Assembly (NCBI GenBank): GCA_015233495.1
Contig: JADFXQ010000005.1
Location: forward strand, 3,066 to 67,065
Length of the DNA: 64,000 nucleotides
Direction: 5' to 3'
Source: Candidatus Omnitrophota bacterium
GTDB lineage: Bacteria > Omnitrophota > Gorgyraeia > Zapsychrales > Zapsychraceae
Position numbers and translations under genes: made by a program
Part shown: positions 3,356 through 57,341 of the stretch, in pieces
How positions within the stretch are numbered: the first letter of the stretch is position 1
Layout of the letters: each line of letters begins with the position of its first letter
The notes under the pieces: generated by a model
What the model was told of the DNA's origin: nothing
The model's database searches: none
The model's input: only the letters and a program-made list of their open reading frames with translations

Positions 3356-3942
3356 TGGTTTGCGGGAGGAGCGGATTCGACAGGATTGGCGATGGGTTGG
3401 GATGGCTGATTTTTAATCGCATCTTTCACCTCATTAAGCGCCGCTGATAACCCGAGAATTTTATTGTTTAACAGAACTTGGGACTTTTGGGTGTCATTTA
3501 AGTCCGTTTGGTTGACTGTCAATGTCTGCCGAAAAGATTCCAATTTCATTTCAAGGAGTTTTTGGCGGGTTTCGGCGGCTTGAATGCGTTTTTCTAAGGT
3601 GATTAGATCAGCTTGAAGAAGTTTTTTAGTTTGATTCAACTCTTGTTTGAGCGCTTCGATGTTTTGGTTTTGCAGAGTCAGGGTTTCTTGAAACTGGCCT
3701 GCCTTGTTGTTTTGGGCGCGTAAACTAACGATCATCTGGTAATTGACCGCGCAAAAAATAAATAGTCCGGAAAGAAAAAATAATGTTAACGGAATAAAAA
3801 TTTTTTCGCTGAAGTGTTCGCCCGCAGACATTTGTAAATGGTCCAGCATGCGCAACGGCGACTTGTTTCCCCCCGCGTCGAGAAAAGCGGGTTTATTTTT
3901 TTTATAATTGGGAAAAGGAGTAGATGGCGAACTCATATTCAT
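3352..3942 (-). CDS. membrane-anchored coiled-coil protein, unknown function
   Basis: Single TM segment (LTLFFLSGLFIFCAV) followed by a long heptad-like Q/L/K-rich region. Divergent from rpoN. Confidence 0.5.
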   Translation of the reverse strand: MNMSSPSTPFPNYKKNKPAFLDAGGNKSPLRMLDHLQMSAGEHFSEKIFIPLTLFFLSGLFIFCAVNYQMIVSLRAQNNKAGQFQETLTLQNQNIEALKQELNQTKKLLQADLITLEKRIQAAETRQKLLEMKLESFRQTLTVNQTDLNDTQKSQVLLNNKILGLSAALNEVKDAIKNQPSQPIANPVESAPPANQ

Positions 3943-4010: not shown

Positions 4011-5360
4011 ATGAAGATAGAAATTTCCTCACTCCAGTCTCAACGACCAATATTTTTGCCGTTGATCCGTCCGGCAATGGAAGTGTTGATGCTGCCAATT
4101 CTTGAGCTTAAGACAGTTATTGAGGCGGAGTTGCAAAGCAACCCGCTTTTGGATGTAGACGAGGAACTGACGCGACAAAGATATGAAATTTTGCAGGAGC
4201 TGCTGCGGGAGCGCTATCCAAGGGGCCGTTATGCGTCGGGAGATTCCTTTCCGGAGGACCCATTTCAGGGACTGACGCGTGAAATATCCTTAGAAGAACA
4301 TTTACTGCAGCAATTAGATTTGGAAATCAACGATACTGAGGAATTAAAAATCGGCGAAATGATTATTGGGAGTTTGGATGAGAATGGATATTTACGAGAA
4401 AGTTGCGAAATGCTGGCCGCGGGATTATCCCTGGCGGTTGAGAAGGTGGAAAAAGTTTTAAACATTATTCAGGGTTTCGACCCGCCCGGAGTCGCGTCGC
4501 GAAATTTAAAAGAATGTTTATTGATTCAGGCCGGGACCCGGCTGACTCGGCAATCTGATTTGTATCAAACATTGATCGCGGATCATTTTGAGGATTTGGC
4601 TAAAAAAAAGTTTGGGGATATCAGCCGGGCTTTGCGGATACCAGTTGCGCAGGTTAAAGACATGACCAGAATCATCGCCGCGTTTAATCCGCGACCCGGA
4701 TGCGCGTTTCAGGCAAGGACGCCGAATTTATATGTTCAACCGGATATGATCATCCTCCCGGCGACTGACCCGAGCGAATATGAAATTATTTTAAATCAAA
4801 CCGAAGTTCCGGTTTTGAAGCTGAATCCGGTTTATCAAAATCTCCTGCGCCGGAGTGATTTGAAGACCGAGGACATTCAGTTTCTTAGAGAGAGAGTTAA
4901 AGACGCGGTTTGGTTCATTCGGAATTTAAAACAGCGAGAGCAAACTATTCAGATGATTGCGGAATTTATCGTTGGCTATCAAAAAGATTTTTTTAAACGC
5001 GGGGTGCTCGGATTGAAACCGTTGGCGCTCAGTGAAGTGGCGCGAGCCATTGGCCGTAATGAATCAACCGTGTGCCGCGCCGTTAACCGTAAATATGTGG
5101 ATTCACCGCAAGGTATTTTTCCGCTCAAATATTTTTTTACGACCCGGGCTTCCCGCCAACGCGGGCAAGAACGTCTTTCCACGCGCGGCATTAAAGAAGA
5201 AATCCGCGTGATTGTTCAAGAGGAAAATACCGGCGCCCCACTCTCCGACCAGGAAATTCACGAAATTTTAGAACAACGCGGCAGGCCTATATCCCGCCGG
5301 GCCATCGCTAAATATCGCGATAAATTGAAAATTCTTCCGTCGTATTTGCGTAAAGGATAA
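4011..5360 (+). CDS. rpoN: RNA polymerase sigma-54 factor
   Basis: N-terminal Q/L-rich activator-interacting region (MKIEISSLQSQ...ELQSNPLL). HTH motif STVCRAVNRKYV...PLKYFF. RpoN box RRAIAKYR. Start placed at ATG 4011, because the track start at 3924 overlaps the divergent gene. Confidence 0.9.
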   Translation: MKIEISSLQSQRPIFLPLIRPAMEVLMLPILELKTVIEAELQSNPLLDVDEELTRQRYEILQELLRERYPRGRYASGDSFPEDPFQGLTREISLEEHLLQQLDLEINDTEELKIGEMIIGSLDENGYLRESCEMLAAGLSLAVEKVEKVLNIIQGFDPPGVASRNLKECLLIQAGTRLTRQSDLYQTLIADHFEDLAKKKFGDISRALRIPVAQVKDMTRIIAAFNPRPGCAFQARTPNLYVQPDMIILPATDPSEYEIILNQTEVPVLKLNPVYQNLLRRSDLKTEDIQFLRERVKDAVWFIRNLKQREQTIQMIAEFIVGYQKDFFKRGVLGLKPLALSEVARAIGRNESTVCRAVNRKYVDSPQGIFPLKYFFTTRASRQRGQERLSTRGIKEEIRVIVQEENTGAPLSDQEIHEILEQRGRPISRRAIAKYRDKLKILPSYLRKG

Positions 5361-19687: not shown

Positions 19688-19740
19688 CTGATTCCCTCCT
19701 AACCCTATATGTGTAAACTTGATGCTTACTACGGCTTTTT

Positions 19741-19814
19741 GTAGGGGCGCCCCTCGTGGGCGCCCGTCGTCCTGGCGCGGCCGCACAACGGGCGCCCACG
19801 AGGGGCGCCCCTAC
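19741..19814. repeat. GC-rich palindromic element, copy A (inverted orientation): GTAGGGGCGCCCCTCGTGGGCGCCCG-N22-CGGGCGCCCACGAGGGGCGCCCCTAC
   Basis: A perfect 26-bp inverted repeat read directly from the sequence. The loop is the reverse complement of the loop in copies B-D. Confidence 0.9.
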
Positions 19815-19891
19815 ATCATTTAACAGGACATTGCAATTTTCACATAGCAACAAGTATTTTATATCAGCTGTATGAGCCGCTCGTAATCGTA

Positions 19892-20623: not shown

Positions 20624-20644
20624 TTGTTGCCTTTTGTCCGGTGT

Positions 20645-20709
20645 TGTCGGGGCGCCTATTGTGGGCGCCCGTTGTTCGGCCGCGCCAGATTGACGGGCGC
20701 CCCTACGAC
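20645..20709. repeat. GC-rich palindromic element, copy B: GGGGCGCC-TATT-GTGGGCGCCCGTTGTTCGGCCGCGCCAGATTGACGGGCGCCCCTAC
   Basis: Shares the 44-nt core with copies C and D. Confidence 0.9.
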
Positions 20710-20758
20710 TAGGATTATAAATACGCTAATGTTTAACCAGCATAATGTCCGGTATTTG

Positions 20759-23700
20759 TTAAACATTGGTCAATTCTATGGCCAAGGTTTTCACTTTTTT
20801 AAGATCAACCTTTCCCGTTCCCAGCATCGGGATCGCGTCTACCCGGACAAAACTGTCGGATTTCGGGATCCATAAATTCGGCAAACCTTTTTGGGATAAT
20901 TTTTCCGACAGGCCGGCGATATCCAAGTCAACAGCATGCAAGACAATCAGCCGCTCCCCTTTTTTTTCATCCGGCACAGACGTTACCGCAATCACCGGAT
21001 CAACCGCGCCGATCGCCTCCAGAATATTTTCTTCCACCTTGATATGCGGCACCATTTCGCCGCCGATTTTGCTGAACCGGCTCAACCGGTCCGTAATTTT
21101 GATAAACCCGTCCTCGTCAATGGCCGCGATATCGCCGGTCACATACCACCCGTCTTTAATCACTTCCGCGGTCTTAGCCGGATTGTTGAGATAACCCTTC
21201 ATCACATTCGCGCCTTTGACCAAAAGCAGACCCGGTTCATCCGGCCCTTTTGCTTCCCCAGTGTCAGGATCAACCACCTTGACAGCCACGCCGGGGATCG
21301 GATGCCCGACCTTGCCGAATTTATGTCCAACCTGACGCTCCATAGCCGCGTCATTCACATAATCCGGAAATCCGACCGTCACAATCGGCGACAATTCCGT
21401 AGCGCCATAACCTTCAAACGGAGTGACGCCGAATTTTTCGTGAAACGCGGTCGCGAGCGGCTCTTTTAATTTTTCCGCGCCGACAACCGCGAGCCGTAAA
21501 TGGCCGAATTGTTCCGGCGTGCATTTTTTGATATACGCGGACATAAAAGTCGGCGTGCCCATCAAAATCGTTCCCTTATACTTCGCGGCCAGTTTGCCGA
21601 TCGTCCCCGCATCTAACGGGTTTGTATGATAAACAACGCCGACTGCGGTTCCGACCGGGAAGCACATCGTTGCCGTGAATCCAAACGAATGAAAAAACGG
21701 CAAAGCCGCGATCACGACATCGTTTTTCTGAATATTAAAGATCTGATAAAAACTTTCGATATTGGAAAAAATATTGGCATGAGTGAGCTGTACGCCTTTG
21801 GGCTCCCCGGTAGATCCGCTCGAAAAAATAATAGTCGCGGTTTCATGTACATCGGTCTGATCCCCCCGGACATATAAAACGCGCAACAGCCATTTCGGCA
21901 AAACCAAACCGGAGACAAAATACAGCCTGGTCAAAACCGGATTGATTTCTTTTTTGATATCTTCGGCAAAAATCATCTGGGGCAGAGCCGCGATCCCGGT
22001 TTTTTCCAAAAACGCCCGCGAAGTCACAATGCGCCGCATATCGCATTGTTTAACGCAAGACGCGAAAGCGTCGGCGGACAATGTGAAATTTAGATTCACC
22101 GGAACTTTGCCGGCAAAGGCAATGGCCAGATTAGCGATCACCGCGAAACAAGACGAAGGCAACAAGACCCCCACTTTTTCCTTTTCGTAGGGGCGCCCCT
22201 CGCCTGCCCCGGCCGCTTTGTTTTGCGAAGCAAAACAGCCGGTGTGGGCGCCCGTTGTTCGGCCGCGCCAGATTGACGGGCGCCCACAAGCTTGTCTGCC
22301 GAAGGCAGGGGACGCCCCTACAGAATCGCTTGCAAAAATTATTTTGGACAACGCCACAGCCGCGGCAAATGTCTTGCCATAAGTGATCTTTCCGCCCAAA
22401 GAATCAGCCATGGAAAATTTGAAAAAATGACGTTTTACCTCATCAATAAACGCCAGATGCAATTTTTTGCGCCACGCGCCGCGCAGGATATTGGCCTCTG
22501 CCCCCAATTCCTGAACAGCCTGGCGGACCTGAGGCGCTTTGACGTCCGGCGCCAAAGGTTTGCCGAATACGATCGAAACCGGATACAAAGTCAACCGCGG
22601 CATTTTCCAAATATATTTGCCGTTGGCATAACTGTAAATACTGCCCCAAACATTATCCAGGTACAACGGAATGATCGGCGCGTTCAAGCCTTTCATAATA
22701 TGCTCAAACCCGCGGTTAAACGGCAGCATATTGCCGGTGCGCGTCAAATGACCTTCCGGAAAAATACAGACGAGTTCGCCGTTCTGAATCGCTTCCCGCG
22801 CGGTGGTCAAGGCGCGGACAACCGCTTTCGGCCCGCCCTCCCGGTCGATCGGAATGACTTTCATAATGCGGCAGAGCGTGTTGATAACCGGCAATTCATA
22901 CATATCCTGCGCCATGATAAACCGGACCGGACGTTTTAAAGCGGCCAGCACCAATGCTCCGTCGATAAATGAGATGTGATTCGCGGTGAGAAGCGCGCCG
23001 CCCTGATTCGGCACATTGTGACTGCCGACCACGCGCAGCCTATACACCGTGTGCGCGGTTAGCCACGTTAAAAGCCGGACGAGCGCGCTGGGCAGGGTCA
23101 TCAGGATATAAATCGTTGTGAAGAAAGTCAGGCCGGAGACCATTAAAAAAATTTTATCCGCCCGTATGCCCAACTGACCGCTCACAATCCAGAGAAACGC
23201 GCCCGCGGCGAGCGAGCCGATCGACGTGACAATATTCAAAACGGACAAATATTGGCCGCGGTTTTCTTCCGGGCTCCAGCGTTGGAAAAAAGCGTTTAAC
23301 GGAACCGTATAAAAGCCGGCGCAAATTCCCAGAATGAACAGAATAAGCAAGGCAGAGAAGAAATTTCCGCCGCATCCCAATAAAAAAGCCATGACTGTGA
23401 TCCCGGCCGCGCCTAACGGCACCAATCCCAATTCCACCTTGCCTTCGGACGCCATAGCCGCGAGCACGCTTCCCCCGGCGATGCCTAAGGATACCGCGAC
23501 GAGAAGAAAACTGATTTGATCCTGGGCCAAGTGAATGATATGCGAGCCGTAGATCAAAATATTCATTTGAAACACCGCGCCGATAAAGGAAAAATACGCC
23601 AAGGCCAACATGGTGAGAAAAAGTCCGTTGTCTTTGCGGATTCCTTTCCAGGCGGACAATGCGCCGGCCCAGAAATTTTGCGGTTGCGCCGGGATTGACT

Positions 23701-24298
23701 TAAGGGTGGGCTGAATCAAAAAACTCGCGGCAAATCCCAAGAGCACTAAAAAAGCCATTAACAGCCCGACGACTGACAAATGTTGTTGAAAAATTTTGTA
23801 TAAAATACCGCCCGCAGCTGTCCCCAAAATGATCCCGGTGAATGTCCAGAGCTGAAGATAACCGTTGCCCTTGGACAAATCCTCCTCGCTCAACATCTCC
23901 GGCAAAATGCCGTATTTGGCCGGCGAGAAAAGCGCGCTTTCAATCATGAACAACAATAAAGTCCCGCACAACAGCCAGAGGTTCCCTATATAAAGAGCGC
24001 CGGCCGCACCCAGCGCCAGCCCCACCTTGACCGCGCTCATGACAATGATGATGGATCGCTTAGAAAAACGGTCCGCCAAAAAACCGGCATAAGGAGAAAA
24101 AACAACAAACGGCAGGATAAACAAAAAACCGACAACACTCACAAACCGGCTGGCCGCTTCGGCCGAAGTCAAAATCTGAATCGCATAAAGCGAAACCACC
24201 ACCTTCAACAAATTATCACTAAACGCGCCAACAAACTGGGCAGTCAGCAAGGCCTTGAAAGAAATTGATCGACAATTTTCGCGCATATCGTCCCTCAA
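20759..24298 (-). CDS. fusion protein: LplT-like MFS lysophospholipid transporter / PlsC-type acyltransferase / acyl-ACP synthetase (Aas-like)
   Basis: About 12 N-terminal TM segments of MFS type. Acyltransferase HISFIDG and FPEGHLTRTG motifs. AMP-binding SSGSTGEPKG and GYGATE motifs. One continuous 1179-codon frame. Confidence 0.8.
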   Translation of the reverse strand: MRDDMRENCRSISFKALLTAQFVGAFSDNLLKVVVSLYAIQILTSAEAASRFVSVVGFLFILPFVVFSPYAGFLADRFSKRSIIIVMSAVKVGLALGAAGALYIGNLWLLCGTLLLFMIESALFSPAKYGILPEMLSEEDLSKGNGYLQLWTFTGIILGTAAGGILYKIFQQHLSVVGLLMAFLVLLGFAASFLIQPTLKSIPAQPQNFWAGALSAWKGIRKDNGLFLTMLALAYFSFIGAVFQMNILIYGSHIIHLAQDQISFLLVAVSLGIAGGSVLAAMASEGKVELGLVPLGAAGITVMAFLLGCGGNFFSALLILFILGICAGFYTVPLNAFFQRWSPEENRGQYLSVLNIVTSIGSLAAGAFLWIVSGQLGIRADKIFLMVSGLTFFTTIYILMTLPSALVRLLTWLTAHTVYRLRVVGSHNVPNQGGALLTANHISFIDGALVLAALKRPVRFIMAQDMYELPVINTLCRIMKVIPIDREGGPKAVVRALTTAREAIQNGELVCIFPEGHLTRTGNMLPFNRGFEHIMKGLNAPIIPLYLDNVWGSIYSYANGKYIWKMPRLTLYPVSIVFGKPLAPDVKAPQVRQAVQELGAEANILRGAWRKKLHLAFIDEVKRHFFKFSMADSLGGKITYGKTFAAAVALSKIIFASDSVGASPAFGRQACGRPSIWRGRTTGAHTGCFASQNKAAGAGEGRPYEKEKVGVLLPSSCFAVIANLAIAFAGKVPVNLNFTLSADAFASCVKQCDMRRIVTSRAFLEKTGIAALPQMIFAEDIKKEINPVLTRLYFVSGLVLPKWLLRVLYVRGDQTDVHETATIIFSSGSTGEPKGVQLTHANIFSNIESFYQIFNIQKNDVVIAALPFFHSFGFTATMCFPVGTAVGVVYHTNPLDAGTIGKLAAKYKGTILMGTPTFMSAYIKKCTPEQFGHLRLAVVGAEKLKEPLATAFHEKFGVTPFEGYGATELSPIVTVGFPDYVNDAAMERQVGHKFGKVGHPIPGVAVKVVDPDTGEAKGPDEPGLLLVKGANVMKGYLNNPAKTAEVIKDGWYVTGDIAAIDEDGFIKITDRLSRFSKIGGEMVPHIKVEENILEAIGAVDPVIAVTSVPDEKKGERLIVLHAVDLDIAGLSEKLSQKGLPNLWIPKSDSFVRVDAIPMLGTGKVDLKKVKTLAIELTNV
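22187..22321. repeat. GC-rich palindromic element, copy C (135 bp, longest form with extra terminal and internal hairpins), inserted in frame inside the aas/lplT gene
   Basis: Runs GTAGGGGCGCCCCT...AGGGGACGCCCCTAC and contains the 44-nt core plus a CTTTGTTTTGCGAAGCAAAACAG hairpin. Length is 135 bp, which is 45 codons, and it is translated as VGASPAFGRQACGRPSIWRGRTTGAHTGCFASQNKAAGAGEGRPY. Confidence 0.9.
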
Positions 24299-24321
24299 TT
24301 GTATAAGAAAAATATTCCTGA

Positions 24322-24414
24322 AAACGCCCCTCGCCCACCACGTATGCCATTTTTTGTGGGGCGCCCATCGTGGGCGCCCGTTACGAGGCCGCGCCAGAAC
24401 GACGGGCGCCCCTA
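24322..24414. repeat. GC-rich palindromic element, copy D
   Basis: Runs ACGCCCCTCGCCCACC...GTGGGGCGCCCATCGTGGGCGCCCGTTACGAGGCCGCGCCAGAACGACGGGCGCCCCTAT. Lies immediately upstream of the aas/lplT start. Confidence 0.85.
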
Positions 24415-24470
24415 TCCGATAATTATAACTTTATCATATTCAAGTTAGTCGAGAATAATCAATTTTTATT

Positions 24471-24620
24471 TAGTGATACAAAGACACATAATAAGTATTG
24501 TTAGAAACATATCCGCTATAAGCAATATTTTTAAAAGACAAAAACATCTGCCCCCAACCGACCAACAAACACCCGGCCACGAAACCTATCAACAGTAAAT
24601 TTTTAATTATTTTTTTCATG
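24471..24620 (-). CDS. small putative lipoprotein (49 aa), not in the ORF track
   Basis: Manual translation gives MKKIIKNLLLIGFVAGCLLVGWGQMFLSFKNIAYSGYVSNNTYYVSLYH. The signal peptide carries a VAGC lipobox-like motif. A GGAGG ribosome-binding site lies 5 nt upstream of the ATG. Confidence 0.45.
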
Positions 24621-24634
24621 CCCGCCTCCTTAAT

Positions 24635-24652
24635 TAGTTGATACATCAACTA
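24635..24652. promoter_or_regulatory. operator-like palindrome TAGTTGA-TACA-TCAACTA (candidate MarR binding site)
   Basis: 7-bp perfect inverted arms. A second copy with a different 4-nt spacer lies upstream of marR. Confidence 0.45.
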
Positions 24653-24667
24653 TATAATCAAAAAAAA

Positions 24668-25138
24668 TTAATTTCCCAAACCGACCAGCCATTTTTTAAA
24701 AATCCCAGCCAGATTCTTTTGATCGTCGGAAGACAATTTATTCATCAAGGTTCTCATTTCCTTGACATATCCCGGCCAAACCGAGTCTAAAATTTGCGAC
24801 CCCTTTTTTGAGATCCGCACCACCTTCACCCGCCGGTCTTCCAAGCGTCCGGCGCGCTCAATCAATTTCTCCCGCTCCAGCTTATCCAGAACCCGCGTCA
24901 TGTTCGAAGCCGTAACCAACAACCGCTGACCAATCTCCCGCTGGCTCAACCCCTCCGCGCCGCCCTGATGTTTAATCACCATGAGCACATTCATCTTGGC
25001 CGGCGTCAAATCAAACCGATCCAAATATTTGGAAATCCGGTCAAACAACAAAGTATAAACAAGGACGAACTGATAAAACGCCTCCTCATCATATCGCCCT
25101 TTCCCGGTTTCCACCCCAAAAGCATCCAAATTATTCAT
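24668..25138 (-). CDS. MarR family transcriptional regulator
   Basis: 156 aa with a winged HTH (LSQREIGQRLLVTASNMTRVLDKLEREKLIER). Confidence 0.8.
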   Translation of the reverse strand: MNNLDAFGVETGKGRYDEEAFYQFVLVYTLLFDRISKYLDRFDLTPAKMNVLMVIKHQGGAEGLSQREIGQRLLVTASNMTRVLDKLEREKLIERAGRLEDRRVKVVRISKKGSQILDSVWPGYVKEMRTLMNKLSSDDQKNLAGIFKKWLVGLGN

Positions 25139-25176
25139 CGCCCTTCTCCTCTTTCTAAAACAAGATTACCATGAAA

Positions 25177-25194
25177 TAGTTGACCTATCAACTA
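25177..25194. promoter_or_regulatory. operator-like palindrome TAGTTGA-CCTA-TCAACTA, 39 bp upstream of the marR start
   Basis: Direct reading. The half-sites are the same as at 24635..24652. Confidence 0.45.
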
Positions 25195-25216
25195 TATTTC
25201 TAAAAAAATTTTCAGG

Positions 25217-25778: not shown

Positions 25779-25851
25779 TGGGCCATGCAGGACTCGAACC
25801 TGCCACCCTTTGATTAAGAGTCAAATGCTCTACCAGATGAGCTAATGGCCC
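25779..25851 (-). tRNA. tRNA-Lys (anticodon CUU)
   Basis: Manual cloverleaf: acceptor stem GGGCCAT/ATGGCCC, D-stem GCTC/GAGC, anticodon stem TTTGA/TCAAA with loop CTCTTAA, T-arm GCAGG-TTCGAGT-CCTGC, discriminator A. CCA is not encoded. Confidence 0.85.
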
Positions 25852-25874: not shown

Positions 25875-26864
25875 TCAATTGTTTGCGTAAACGCGATTGT
25901 CATAACGTTCTCGCAAATCCGGCAAATGTGCTAAAAATGTGCTATTTTTTTCCGCGACTTCGCCGGTGTTTGTTTCAGAATCGACATTATACATAACATC
26001 TTCTTTTTTTCCAGGTATTTTTCTGCCGATTTTTTGGATCGCGTTTTTCAGCACATCCGCGCTCAAATGCGCGTAGCGTTGCGTCATAACCGGTGAAGTA
26101 TGCCCGAGCAATTTCTGGACGACATAAAGGTCAACGCCATCCCGCACCAATTGGGAAGCAAACGTGTGCCGCAGGCCATGAAAGTGAAAATCCTTCAGCT
26201 TCGCTTTCACGACGGCGCGTTGATACGCGTTTTTCATACTCCCCTGAGGTTTGTTCGTTTTCGGATTAAAGAAAATATAATCCGTGGCCTTTTGCCGCGG
26301 CATTTTCATGAGTTCCTGCTTCACGAATTCATTTAACGGAATCCAGCGCGACTTTTTGCTTTTCGTTAAGGATTCGTGAATAAAGATCATGTCGTGCTCT
26401 AAATCCACATAATTACTTTCAGGAGCGCGCCGCCACTTCAAATTCGCGATCTCACTCCAACGCATACCGGTCCGCAAAGCGATCAGAACCACGAGTCGAG
26501 TGAGGCCGTTGCATTACGACAAAAGCCGATTTTGCTCTTCTTCATTCAACCATCGACAGCGTTCATTGTTCTCGGCTAATCTTTTGATTACCCGGATCTG
26601 ATTGTTGCTGACAATCCCCCACTCAATCGCGCGGTTAAACATACATTTGATTGCCGCTAAAGAGCGATTGACGGATGAAGGGCTGACCTTATCCAGCCGC
26701 GCGGCCATGTATTCCCGGATATCCAACGCTGATATCTGATGTAAATATCGATTTTGAAAATGACGCGCGAGATTTTTGATCAGACACGTTTGCGTGGATA
26801 CGCTTTTATTCTCTACGCGGACGTAGGCGTCCAAATATTTTTCACTAAAATCTTCAAACGCCAT
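25875..26864 (-). pseudogene. tyrosine recombinase/phage-type integrase, frameshifted (N-terminal SAM-like domain 26514..26864, catalytic domain 25875..26492)
   Basis: Catalytic R (LRTGMRWSEI), HxxR (HGLRHTFA) and the Tyr motif (TQRYAHL) are in the downstream ORF. The N-terminal core-binding domain is in a separate frame. The two ORFs are 21 nt apart. Confidence 0.65.
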
Positions 26865-56219: not shown

Positions 56220-57332
56220 TCAAGATTGATAAGAGAAAACCCCTGAGCAGGAAGTTTTGCAAAATGAGCAATGGCCGGTTTCATCCAATTGATAGTCGGT
56301 TATTTTATAACCGGTTCGCCGGATGATGAGCTGGCCGCATTGCTGACAAACCGTGGGGGTTTCGTCGTTTTGGGAGACGTTTCCCAGATATACAAAGCGC
56401 AGACCTGATTGTTGGGCGATGTCCCGGGCGGTTTTAAGGGTTTCGATGGGTGTCACGTTGTTGTCTAAGAGACGATAATCCGGGTGAAACGCGGAAAAAT
56501 GGATTGGCACATCCCTCCCCAATTCCGCGGCGATCCATTGGCACATGGACCGGATTTCGTCGGGATTGTCATTCGCGCCGGGGATTAAGAGGTTCGTGAT
56601 TTCTAACCAAGTTTTGGTGGACGTATGAATATAACGTAAAGTTTCCAATACGGGTTGTAAATGCGCGTTGCAATATTTTTGGTAAAACGCTTCTGAAAAG
56701 CCTTTCAAATCGACATTGGTCGCGTCCATGCACTCAAAAAATTCTTTGCGGGCCGGCGCTTGGATATATCCATTGGTGACCGCAACGGTTTTGAGCCTGT
56801 GTTCGCGGCAGGCTTGCGCGATATGGATCGCGAATTCGGAGAATATCACCGGTTCATTATAGGTAAAGGCGACGCTGGCGCAGTCATGGTCTTGGGCCGC
56901 GGCTATGATAAGGGCCGCGGTGACAGGCTGCATGGGTTGTTCGGTTTTAGCAAAAGCCCAGTTTTGACAAAACGAACAGCCTAAGTTACAGCCGACTGTG
57001 CCAAACGACAGGATTTTCGACCCGGGTAAAAAGTGATACAGCGGTTTTTTTTCTATCGGGTCAACCGCCAATCCGGTGGTGTGATTGAACGCGGTCGTGA
57101 CTAAATTGCCGGCGAGATTTTTCCGAACAAAGCAGAATCCGCTGGCATTTTGGTCGATCACGCAGGCCCGGGGACACAGGTCGCATTGTATCAGTTTACC
57201 GTTTAGCGGGTGCCAAAATTGGGCGGGATGATGAGCAAGTGTTGAAATAATAAAAATCCTTTTAGGCCGCTGTTTTGCTTCTGTAGGAACGCCCTTTGTC
57301 CGATCGCGCCAGAAAGACGGGCGTTCGTACAA
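56220..57332 (-). CDS. radical SAM enzyme of the AmmeMemoRadiSam/PflA-like type
   Basis: CDLCPRAC...GFCFVRKN N-terminal Cys motif and the CNLGCSFCQNW radical-SAM motif. The 5' end is uncertain: the track start is a TTG lying inside repeat copy E, and the first conserved residues begin near AHHPAQFW. Confidence 0.65.
   Translation of the reverse strand: MYERPSFWRDRTKGVPTEAKQRPKRIFIISTLAHHPAQFWHPLNGKLIQCDLCPRACVIDQNASGFCFVRKNLAGNLVTTAFNHTTGLAVDPIEKKPLYHFLPGSKILSFGTVGCNLGCSFCQNWAFAKTEQPMQPVTAALIIAAAQDHDCASVAFTYNEPVIFSEFAIHIAQACREHRLKTVAVTNGYIQAPARKEFFECMDATNVDLKGFSEAFYQKYCNAHLQPVLETLRYIHTSTKTWLEITNLLIPGANDNPDEIRSMCQWIAAELGRDVPIHFSAFHPDYRLLDNNVTPIETLKTARDIAQQSGLRFVYLGNVSQNDETPTVCQQCGQLIIRRTGYKITDYQLDETGHCSFCKTSCSGVFSYQS
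57283..57330. repeat. GC-rich palindromic element, degenerate copy E (GTAGGAACGCCC-N24-GGGCGTTCGTAC with a CGCGCCAGAAAGACGGGCG core)
   Basis: Direct reading. It shares the CGCGCCAGA..GACGGGCG core with copies B-D. Confidence 0.7.
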
Positions 57333-57341
57333 AATAGATGA

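Follow-up and report, generated by a model that had tools for sequence, protein, structure and literature searches.

The 64-kb window analysed here (the whole stretch of DNA, 64,000 nucleotides, from an Omnitrophota-like genome) contains a family of short, GC-rich palindromes, one of which lies in frame within a protein-coding gene, a fusion of an LplT-like transporter, an acyltransferase and an acyl-ACP synthetase (Aas), termed here the aas fusion gene. The explanation that can be held with good confidence is that a non-autonomous repeat of the GTAG-tagged REP-dimer type (REP, repetitive extragenic palindrome), similar to the REP doublets forming hairpins (REPINs), spread locally within a lipid-metabolism operon and left one tolerated copy inside aas. 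The insert would be a passenger which the protein tolerates, and not an adaptation. Judged by its sequence, the element is a GTAG-tagged REP dimer and not a Rickettsia palindromic element (RPE).

The insert (GTAGGGGCGCCCCT...AGGGGACGCCCCTAC) starts at offset 1977 of the gene, a multiple of three and thus a codon boundary, and its length is likewise 3n. It is read in the frame GTA GGG ... CCC TAC, i.e. V-G...P-Y (VGASPA...GEGRPY), and is translated into the stop-free peptide VGASPAFGRQACGRPSIWRGRTTGAHTGCFASQNKAAGAGEGRPY, which is rich in G, A, R and P and carries five R and one K versus a single E. The preliminary description of this DNA had reported a 135-bp element of 45 codons without a stop at 22187-22321, and both coordinates and translation proved accurate. 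It had also placed the insertion point in the turn before the VGVLL strand, which holds, yet after ...FASD, which does not, since the residue preceding the insert is S (FASDS|); the junctions read ...IIFASDS|insert|EKEKVGVLL, with EKEKVGVLLPSS on the downstream side. The open frame is not remarkable by itself, because three of the six frames of the element are free of stops. The insert has 69% GC versus 48% for the host genome (69-81% among the elements). Its sense RNA is predicted to adopt a closed multi-branch fold of -89.1 kcal/mol (z = -7.2), which is much more stable than chance would give. The parts of the insert and its flank are as follows (a strand is given for the whole insert only).

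22187 to 22321, minus strand: in-frame palindromic insert, 135 nt, 45 codons, residues 656-700 in ATG numbering (660-704 when counted from TTG)
22187 to 22202, no strand: outer left arm GTAGGGGCGCCCCTCG (GTAG head plus GGGGCGCCCC), identical over its 16 nt to the start of the canonical copy (19741-19756) and paired with the outer right arm in the folds
22203 to 22243, no strand: extra hairpin A, CCGGCCGCTTTGTTTTGC-GAA-GCAAAACAGCCGG, 41 nt, seen in the folds and not present in the canonical 74-nt copy
22244 to 22287, no strand: core, composed of GTGGGCGCCCGT, a 20-nt loop and ACGGGCGCCCAC, matched to other copies in the profile search (nhmmer)
22288 to 22308, no strand: extra small hairpin B, AAGCTTGTCTGCC-GAA-GGCAG, 21 nt, seen in the folds
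22309 to 22321, no strand: outer right arm GGGACGCCCCTAC, which departs from the consensus at one position
22174 to 22186, no strand: flank CTTTTTCCTTTTC on the plus strand (GAAAAGGAAAAAG on the sense strand, coding for EKEK), a T-run directly 5' of the GTAG head

The T-run flank is possibly a target site or possibly part of the element end, and the boundary of the insert is consequently uncertain by about 6 nt; the length could be 141 instead of 135 nt, and both are multiples of three.

The insert belongs to a family that is concentrated in the surrounding operon, the preliminary description having already placed it in the repeat family of the nearby intergenic spacers. The head motif GTAGGGGCGCCCC (at most two mismatches) occurs nine times in the window versus 1.4 times expected, a number reached in none of 100 shuffles, and all nine occurrences fall within 19.7-24.4 kb. 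A profile of the copies (nhmmer) matches 19741-19814, 20647-20706, 22242-22289 and 24356-24415, as well as a degenerate sequence at about 57277-57330. The 64 kb thus hold five copies; one operon accounts for four of them, and the genes that surround or contain the copies are in each case co-directional. The four copies other than the insert, three of which occupy spacers of the operon, are listed below.

19741 to 19814, no strand: intact copy taken as canonical, 74 nt long and almost perfectly palindromic, made of two inverted GTAG units and located in the hydrolase/hexapeptide-transferase spacer
20647 to 20706, no strand: copy whose right arm is shortened, in the aas/hydrolase spacer
24325 to 24415, no strand: copy whose right arm is shortened (24356-24415), together with an upstream piece (24325-24355), in the MarR/aas spacer
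57268 to 57332, no strand: degenerate fifth copy, GTAGGAACGCCC...GGGCGTTCGTAC (nhmmer E = 7e-6), between two minus-strand genes and probably intergenic

The canonical copy is laid out as GTAG-G-GGGCGCCC-CTCGT-GGGCGCCC-GT, followed by a 20-nt spacer and the inverted unit, i.e. two 27-nt arms around the spacer, with a predicted RNA fold of -74 to -81 kcal/mol (z about -11 to -12); a length of 76 nt was stated for this fold, the copy being otherwise delimited as 74 nt. The single 27-nt unit, GTAGGGGCGCCCCTCGTGGGCGCCCGT, comprises GTAG, an 8-bp stem and a 5-nt loop, and its DNA fold (-11.9 kcal/mol, z = -4.2) is equalled in none of 200 shuffles. The upstream piece at 24325-24355 and the left end of the insert are related sequences. 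Extra hairpin A also seems, from its sequence, to belong to the family, because GGCCGCTGTTTTGC, which matches one arm of this hairpin, directly precedes and abuts the decayed copy at 57.27 kb, while no second copy of hairpin B was detected by nhmmer within the 64-kb window. The copies at 19741 and 22187 carry GTAG at either outer end, that at 24356 has a GTGG head, and that at 57.3 kb has GTAC/GTAG.

The copies also share a sequence context, in that four of the five have TTTT within 8 nt outside one end (chance 0.12-0.15 per copy, P of about 1e-3 to 2e-3). The runs lie outside the GTAG, GTGG or GTAC head:

19735 to 19740: CTTTTT
22181 to 22186: CTTTTC
24349 to 24355: ATTTTTT
57330 to 57336: AAAATAG (other strand)

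They may reflect a target-site preference or a slightly longer element end. In two copies a CT is thereby positioned six bases 5' of GTAG, namely CTTTTT-GTAG (19735) and CTTTTC-GTAG (22181). An initial impression that only the in-gene copy is 3n long was dropped, as both truncated spacer copies measure 60 nt with their present boundaries and the intact canonical copy of 74 nt is the only one that is clearly not 3n.

The relationship between the insert and its neighbours is close. The 43-nt core, including the variable loop, is 100% identical between 22243-22285 and 20660-20702, which lies 1.5 kb downstream, and the core of the in-gene copy is 91% identical to 19756-19799 and 86% identical to 24370-24411. 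Such identity suggests recent local copying, or gene conversion, over 1.5 kb. The same identity might be taken as a sign of faulty assembly, whereby a repeat-induced misjoin or a collapsed repeat was placed within the gene; the window probably derives from a metagenome-assembled genome (MAG), and repeats are where assemblers err. This account is barely credible, however, as the gene is colinear and in frame on both sides and matches its orthologues residue for residue, hairpins A and B of the in-gene copy are sequences unique in the window, and a misjoin would not restore the frame.

The assignment of the element to the GTAG-REP dimers is made because it combines a GTAG head, a short perfect hairpin and two inverted units, without coding capacity or target duplication. 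In repeats of this class the unit ends on one side in a conserved GTAG (or GTGG/GTRG), as is found here; their 20-40-nt unit folds as a stem-loop with stems of mostly 6-9 bp, as does the 27-nt unit; and inverted units are paired across a short spacer, as in the 74-nt copy. REPs are defined as having many dispersed copies, mostly located between co-directional or convergent genes (PMC3733652). Their presence inside genes of several species was described by Di Nocera et al. (2013, BMC Genomics 14:522; PMC3733652), the highest intragenic counts being found in Opitutus terrae (Verrucomicrobia, PVC superphylum) for GTAG REPs and in R. conorii for CGTC REPs, the latter having been identified with RPE-4 and RPE-6. 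Intragenic dimers code for 20-30 amino acids and clusters for 43-82 (PMC3733652), and the GTAG-18 dimers of O. terrae are translated as VGPALAAGRE...AAGERPPY (PMC3733652, supplement). The parallel to RPEs drawn in the preliminary description is thus apt for the behaviour, i.e. in-frame insertion at a structurally tolerated position of an open reading frame (ORF), but not for the family: the heads are GTAG and not CGTC and the element is GC-rich, a distinction judged by head, GC content and host and not by alignment to an RPE consensus.

Other types of element were considered and rejected. A miniature inverted-repeat transposable element would share the inverted termini, yet none of the five copies has a direct duplication at its flanks. 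The ends GTAGGGG ... CCCCTAC differ from those of an integron attC site (RYYYAAC ... GTTRRRY), and the flanking genes form a conserved syntenic operon and not cassettes. An intein or intron is ruled out by size and end motifs, and in the case of translational bypass the codons TCT|GTA ... TAC|GAA, inspected by eye, offer no matching take-off and landing codons.

The host gene is an unbroken ORF on the minus strand, and its three domains are united in one product.

20759 to 24298, minus strand: host gene, coding in one ORF for an LplT-like major facilitator superfamily (MFS) domain, a PlsC-type acyltransferase and an acyl-ACP synthetase (Aas), as established from the ORF list, translation, Pfam and homologues
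20759 to 20761, minus strand: stop codon of the aas fusion gene

Pfam assigns MFS_1 to residues 17-365 (E = 5e-32), Acyltransferase to 420-547 (1.8e-26) and AMP-binding to 706-1037 (2.7e-64) of a single polypeptide, which therefore has the three-domain composition (MFS, PlsC-type acyltransferase and AMP-binding/ANL) of an Aas-LplT type fusion. The length of 1179 codons given earlier is correct when counted from the TTG at 24298; the ATG at 24286, which yields 1175 amino acids, is probably the true start, because the N-termini of the orthologues (MEKTCRS...) align there, and the TTG is less likely. The best homologues are fusions of 1136-1146 amino acids, at most 72% identical by BLASTP and 75% in a MAFFT alignment, and bear the names Candidatus Omnitrophica/Omnitrophota (NCBI) and acyl-ACP-phospholipid O-acyltransferase/long-chain-fatty-acid-ACP ligase (JGI). 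The AMP-binding match spans profile positions 46-384 and resumes at position 46 just past the insert, which places the first ~45 profile positions upstream of it. In agreement with this, the modelled C-terminal domain aligns in Foldseek to complete ANL enzymes, e.g. MatB (4gxr, TM 0.81 over the target), so that the segment upstream of the insert belongs to the adenylation fold and is no linker. The earlier description of one continuous gene is thus upheld, and so is its doubt about two separate genes, as there is no stop and a split would fall within the adenylation domain according to both Pfam and Foldseek.

Comparison with orthologues, which the preliminary description had recommended, shows that the 45 residues are missing in 120 of 120 listed homologues (at most 75% identical). 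The site lies between the helix ...AVALSKILF, which is the first long one in the adenylate-forming domain, and the strand (M/K)VGVLLPSS; its length varies by ~10 residues among the homologues and its sequence is poorly conserved. In an AlphaFold2 model built from a 59-sequence alignment (mean pLDDT, the local confidence score, 84.9; pTM, the global one, 0.76), the flanking helices 636-650 and 652-656 have pLDDT values of ~95 and the strand 704-708 values of 92-96, while residues 656-699 are modelled as coil, with means per 10-residue block of 24-36 within the insert. Sequence and model together support a lineage-specific insertion in a length-variable helix-to-strand connection. The proposed loop placement is accordingly borne out as a low-confidence coil between confident flanks, and exposure of the loop to solvent is probable.

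It might be argued that the gene is a young pseudogene, in which a recent insertion has disabled the acyl-ACP-synthetase domain or, because the hairpin is poorly translated, the whole fusion, and the ORF remained open by luck. An open in-frame insert is not rare, given that half of the frames of the element are open and about one in three lengths keeps the frame; the identity of the core to the neighbouring copy indicates a recent event, so that decay may have lacked the time to show, and the RNA structure is very stable. The sequence nevertheless gives no sign of decay in aas. Columns conserved in at least 90% of the sequences are kept in 162 of 162 cases downstream of the insert and in 296 of 298 overall, other sequences deviating at a median of 7, and no strongly conserved downstream residue is lost. 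The site is moreover the most length-variable stretch of the region among the homologues, the model retains the flanking helix and strand at pLDDT >90, and many apparently functional genes in O. terrae and Rickettsia carry such inserts (PMC3733652). A young pseudogene is therefore unlikely, and for annotation the locus should be kept as one gene, neither split nor flagged as a pseudogene. If the insert is tolerated as proposed, a variable surface loop in an ANL enzyme has here accommodated 45 residues without structure.

The operon around aas is conserved as to gene order, and differs from its counterparts in its spacers. The gene is flanked by MarR on one side and, on the other, by genes for an alpha/beta hydrolase, a hexapeptide transferase, a CDP-alcohol phosphatidyltransferase, a CDP-diglyceride synthase and PlsC, and the order MarR-aas-hydrolase-hexapeptide transferase is kept in orthologous contigs. 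There, adjacent genes overlap (by 8 nt and 4 nt in L070) or are nearly contiguous (11 nt apart in L072), and no motifs of the GGGGCGCCCC/GGGCGCCCG type occur in ~85 kb of these contigs, whereas in the window each junction is a widened spacer with a copy, in addition to the copy inside aas. The orthologous contigs have 102 nt in place of the spacer of 381 nt (24287-24667), an overlap of 8 nt in place of 135 nt (20624-20758), and an overlap of 4 nt or a spacer of 11 nt in place of ~205 nt (19688-19891); the element copies do not explain all of this additional sequence, but a part of it. The copy at 19741-19814 overlaps nothing but a spurious upstream extension of the transferase ORF and is regarded as extragenic, because homology to the orthologous transferase begins at residue 35 of the listed ORF.

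Two further observations concern the MarR end of the operon. Direct repeats of 38 nt at 24632-24669 and 25174-25211 (76% identical), each with the palindrome TAGTTGAnnnnTCAACTA, bracket the gene for the 156-aa MarR protein (24668-25138) and look like paired operator sites, putatively for a MarR regulator of the aas operon. Beyond them, a tRNA gene (25779-25851, minus strand) adjoins a phage-type integrase split into two ORFs, 25878-26492 and 26517-26864 (N-terminal SAM-like part and catalytic part), which is probably frameshifted or decayed. The orthologous contigs L070-L072 carry integrase genes as well, just upstream of MarR, and for this reason the junction upstream of MarR seems to be a recurrent integration hotspot.

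The density of copies in the operon may also be read as a sign of co-option, either of the RNA structure for mRNA processing, stability or translational pausing within and between the genes of the operon, or of the insert as a positively charged flexible loop with a role at the membrane or in contact with ACP. One 4.7-kb operon contains four of the five copies, at every junction and once inside a gene; an influence of REPs on mRNA stability and attenuation has been reported, as has their position at the borders of specific gene clusters in Thauera (PMC3733652); and the peptide carries the excess of basic residues noted above. Such a role is nonetheless very unlikely, since the insert is conserved in no homologue, the copies receive no terminator-like or promoter-like call and match no Rfam family, and local transposition explains their clustering equally well. 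In a consensus scan for terminators and promoters no call fell on any copy, and among Rfam matches in the window only a tRNA passes the gathering threshold; under an E-value threshold there is one chance-level match, to the MNV 3'UTR family, on the canonical copy (18.9 bits versus a threshold of 70).

The proposed course of events involves no function of the insert. A GTAG-REP-like repeat would have spread within one lipid-metabolism operon of the Omnitrophota-like genome, presumably mobilised by a single-strand Y1 transposase of the REP-associated tyrosine transposase (RAYT, or TnpA_REP) type encoded elsewhere in the genome. Insertion may have favoured sites next to T/A runs, such as the EKEK-coding run in aas, and one copy would thus have entered the aas fusion gene in frame and free of stops. 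This copy may have survived because, being in frame and stop-free in a tolerant and probably solvent-exposed loop, it leaves the enzyme working, its 45 G/A/R/P-rich residues forming a disordered excursion. A more far-reaching version can be envisaged, whereby an active REP/RAYT-like system of uncultivated Omnitrophota, seeding next to A/T runs, has just colonised the lipid-remodelling operon and is able to enter coding sequence, and the intragenic RNA structure might also be co-opted to pause or tune translation between the membrane-embedded and soluble synthetase halves. This version is distinctly unlikely, yet if true it would be a case, outside Rickettsia and Opitutus, of palindromic repeats caught in the act of creating new protein loops.

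Several points weigh against the interpretation as a locally spread and tolerated REP dimer. There is no RAYT gene within the 64-kb window, a hidden Markov model of 16 RAYT/TIRYT sequences having found no match in its six-frame ORFs. Neither the 45-aa insert peptide nor the three-frame translations of the canonical element find a match among 5.8 billion proteins, and the intragenic case is a single one. The in-gene copy is non-canonical in its two extra hairpins, and the uncertainty of ~6 nt applies to its exact ends. The function of the Aas protein is inferred solely from sequence conservation and the model, and a structure of -89 kcal/mol within the mRNA could impair translation. Finally, the closest orthologue is just ~75% identical, so that the insertion is not datable, and no empty-site allele was seen.

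Relatives of the element are scarce but recognizable. A strict element pattern had no match in the genome contig collection searched, and the viral contigs likewise gave no match to the element. A relaxed pattern gave mostly chance matches, for the greater part palindromes of GC-rich actinobacteria, and the nested GTAG/GTGG architecture was shared only by the following.

L038 3132 to 3217, L040 5059 to 5144, L053 1218 to 1303 and L050 46 to 131: related elements on soil-metagenome contigs (~52-54% GC)
L007 2400 to 2485 and L027 26 to 96: variant element in a MAG labelled Porphyromonadaceae

The elements of the soil contigs are laid out as GTAGGGGCG(T/C)CCC..GTGGGCGCCCGT, a loop, and ACGGGCGCCCAC..GGG(A/G)CGCCCCTAC, with loops unrelated to those in the window, and CT-GTAG is present in those of L038, L040 and L053. 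As a separate observation, the unrelated metagenome contig L042 (3659-4178; the same in L058) contains an apparently frameshifted RAYT-like ORF (E = 8.5e-21 to the RAYT/TIRYT profile), flanked on both sides by GGAGGCACGGGCGCCCnCGCCCGTGCG palindromes (3672-3700 and 4272-4300). This arrangement is REPtron-like, and its repeat, though it contains GGGCGCCC, is different from that of the window.

The phenomenon, the class of element and even the reading frame have been described before, and no new mechanism is opened by the present case. What is new is modest: the host lineage, the GGGCGCCC-stem family, the composite 135-nt architecture and the concentration of copies in one lipid operon. The case is a clean and well-delimited addition to the short list of bacteria with in-frame palindromic repeats inside working genes, which has comprised the Rickettsia RPEs and the GTAG/CGTC REPs of Opitutus, Thauera and others, and which now extends to an Omnitrophota-like lineage with a new GGGCGCCC-stem REP family.

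With regard to the host gene, lplT and aas are two separate genes in E. coli. The same three activities are shared with E. coli Aas and LplT (lysophospholipid transporter and 2-acyl-GPE acyltransferase/acyl-ACP synthetase), yet the window gene and all listed homologues code for a single polypeptide of ~1140 amino acids, and among these fusions only that of the window genome has the 45-aa insert.

With regard to the element, the RPEs (Ogata et al. 2002, Genome Res 12:808; Claverie and Ogata 2003) resemble it as palindromes lying in frame in genes at apparently tolerated positions and adding a peptide, but the window element is GTAG-tagged and GC-rich, while the intragenic REPs of R. conorii are CGTC-tagged in an AT-rich genome. 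With the REPINs of REPIN/RAYT systems (Bertels and Rainey 2011, PMC3116915; Corneloup et al. 2021, PMC8266576) the window element shares two inverted REPs that form one long hairpin, a GTAG guide-like tetranucleotide and the lack of coding capacity. In E. coli, S. maltophilia and Marinomonas, the substrate recognised by TnpA_REP (RAYT) is the single-stranded hairpin together with GTAG, and cleavage takes place at a CT or CA close by (PMC8266576); two window copies have a CT a few bases 5' of the head, which would be a candidate for such a site. REPINs are, however, described as extragenic, whereas the window has an intragenic copy and no RAYT.

The closest likeness in layout and reading frame is to GTAG-17/18/19 of Opitutus terrae. 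The repeat sequence differs, the window element having the GGGCGCCC stem; the insert of 45 amino acids exceeds the 20-30 of typical dimers because of the two extra internal hairpins; a single intragenic copy is seen in the window; and the host is an uncultivated Omnitrophota-like bacterium of 48% GC, so that the GC-rich insert stands out. In both cases, however, a GTAG head and a GC-rich hairpin are present in two inverted units which lie in frame inside otherwise normal genes, the frame GTA GGN ... CCN TAC yields V-G...P-Y peptides rich in G, A, P and R, the host is of the PVC group, and most other copies are located between co-directional genes.

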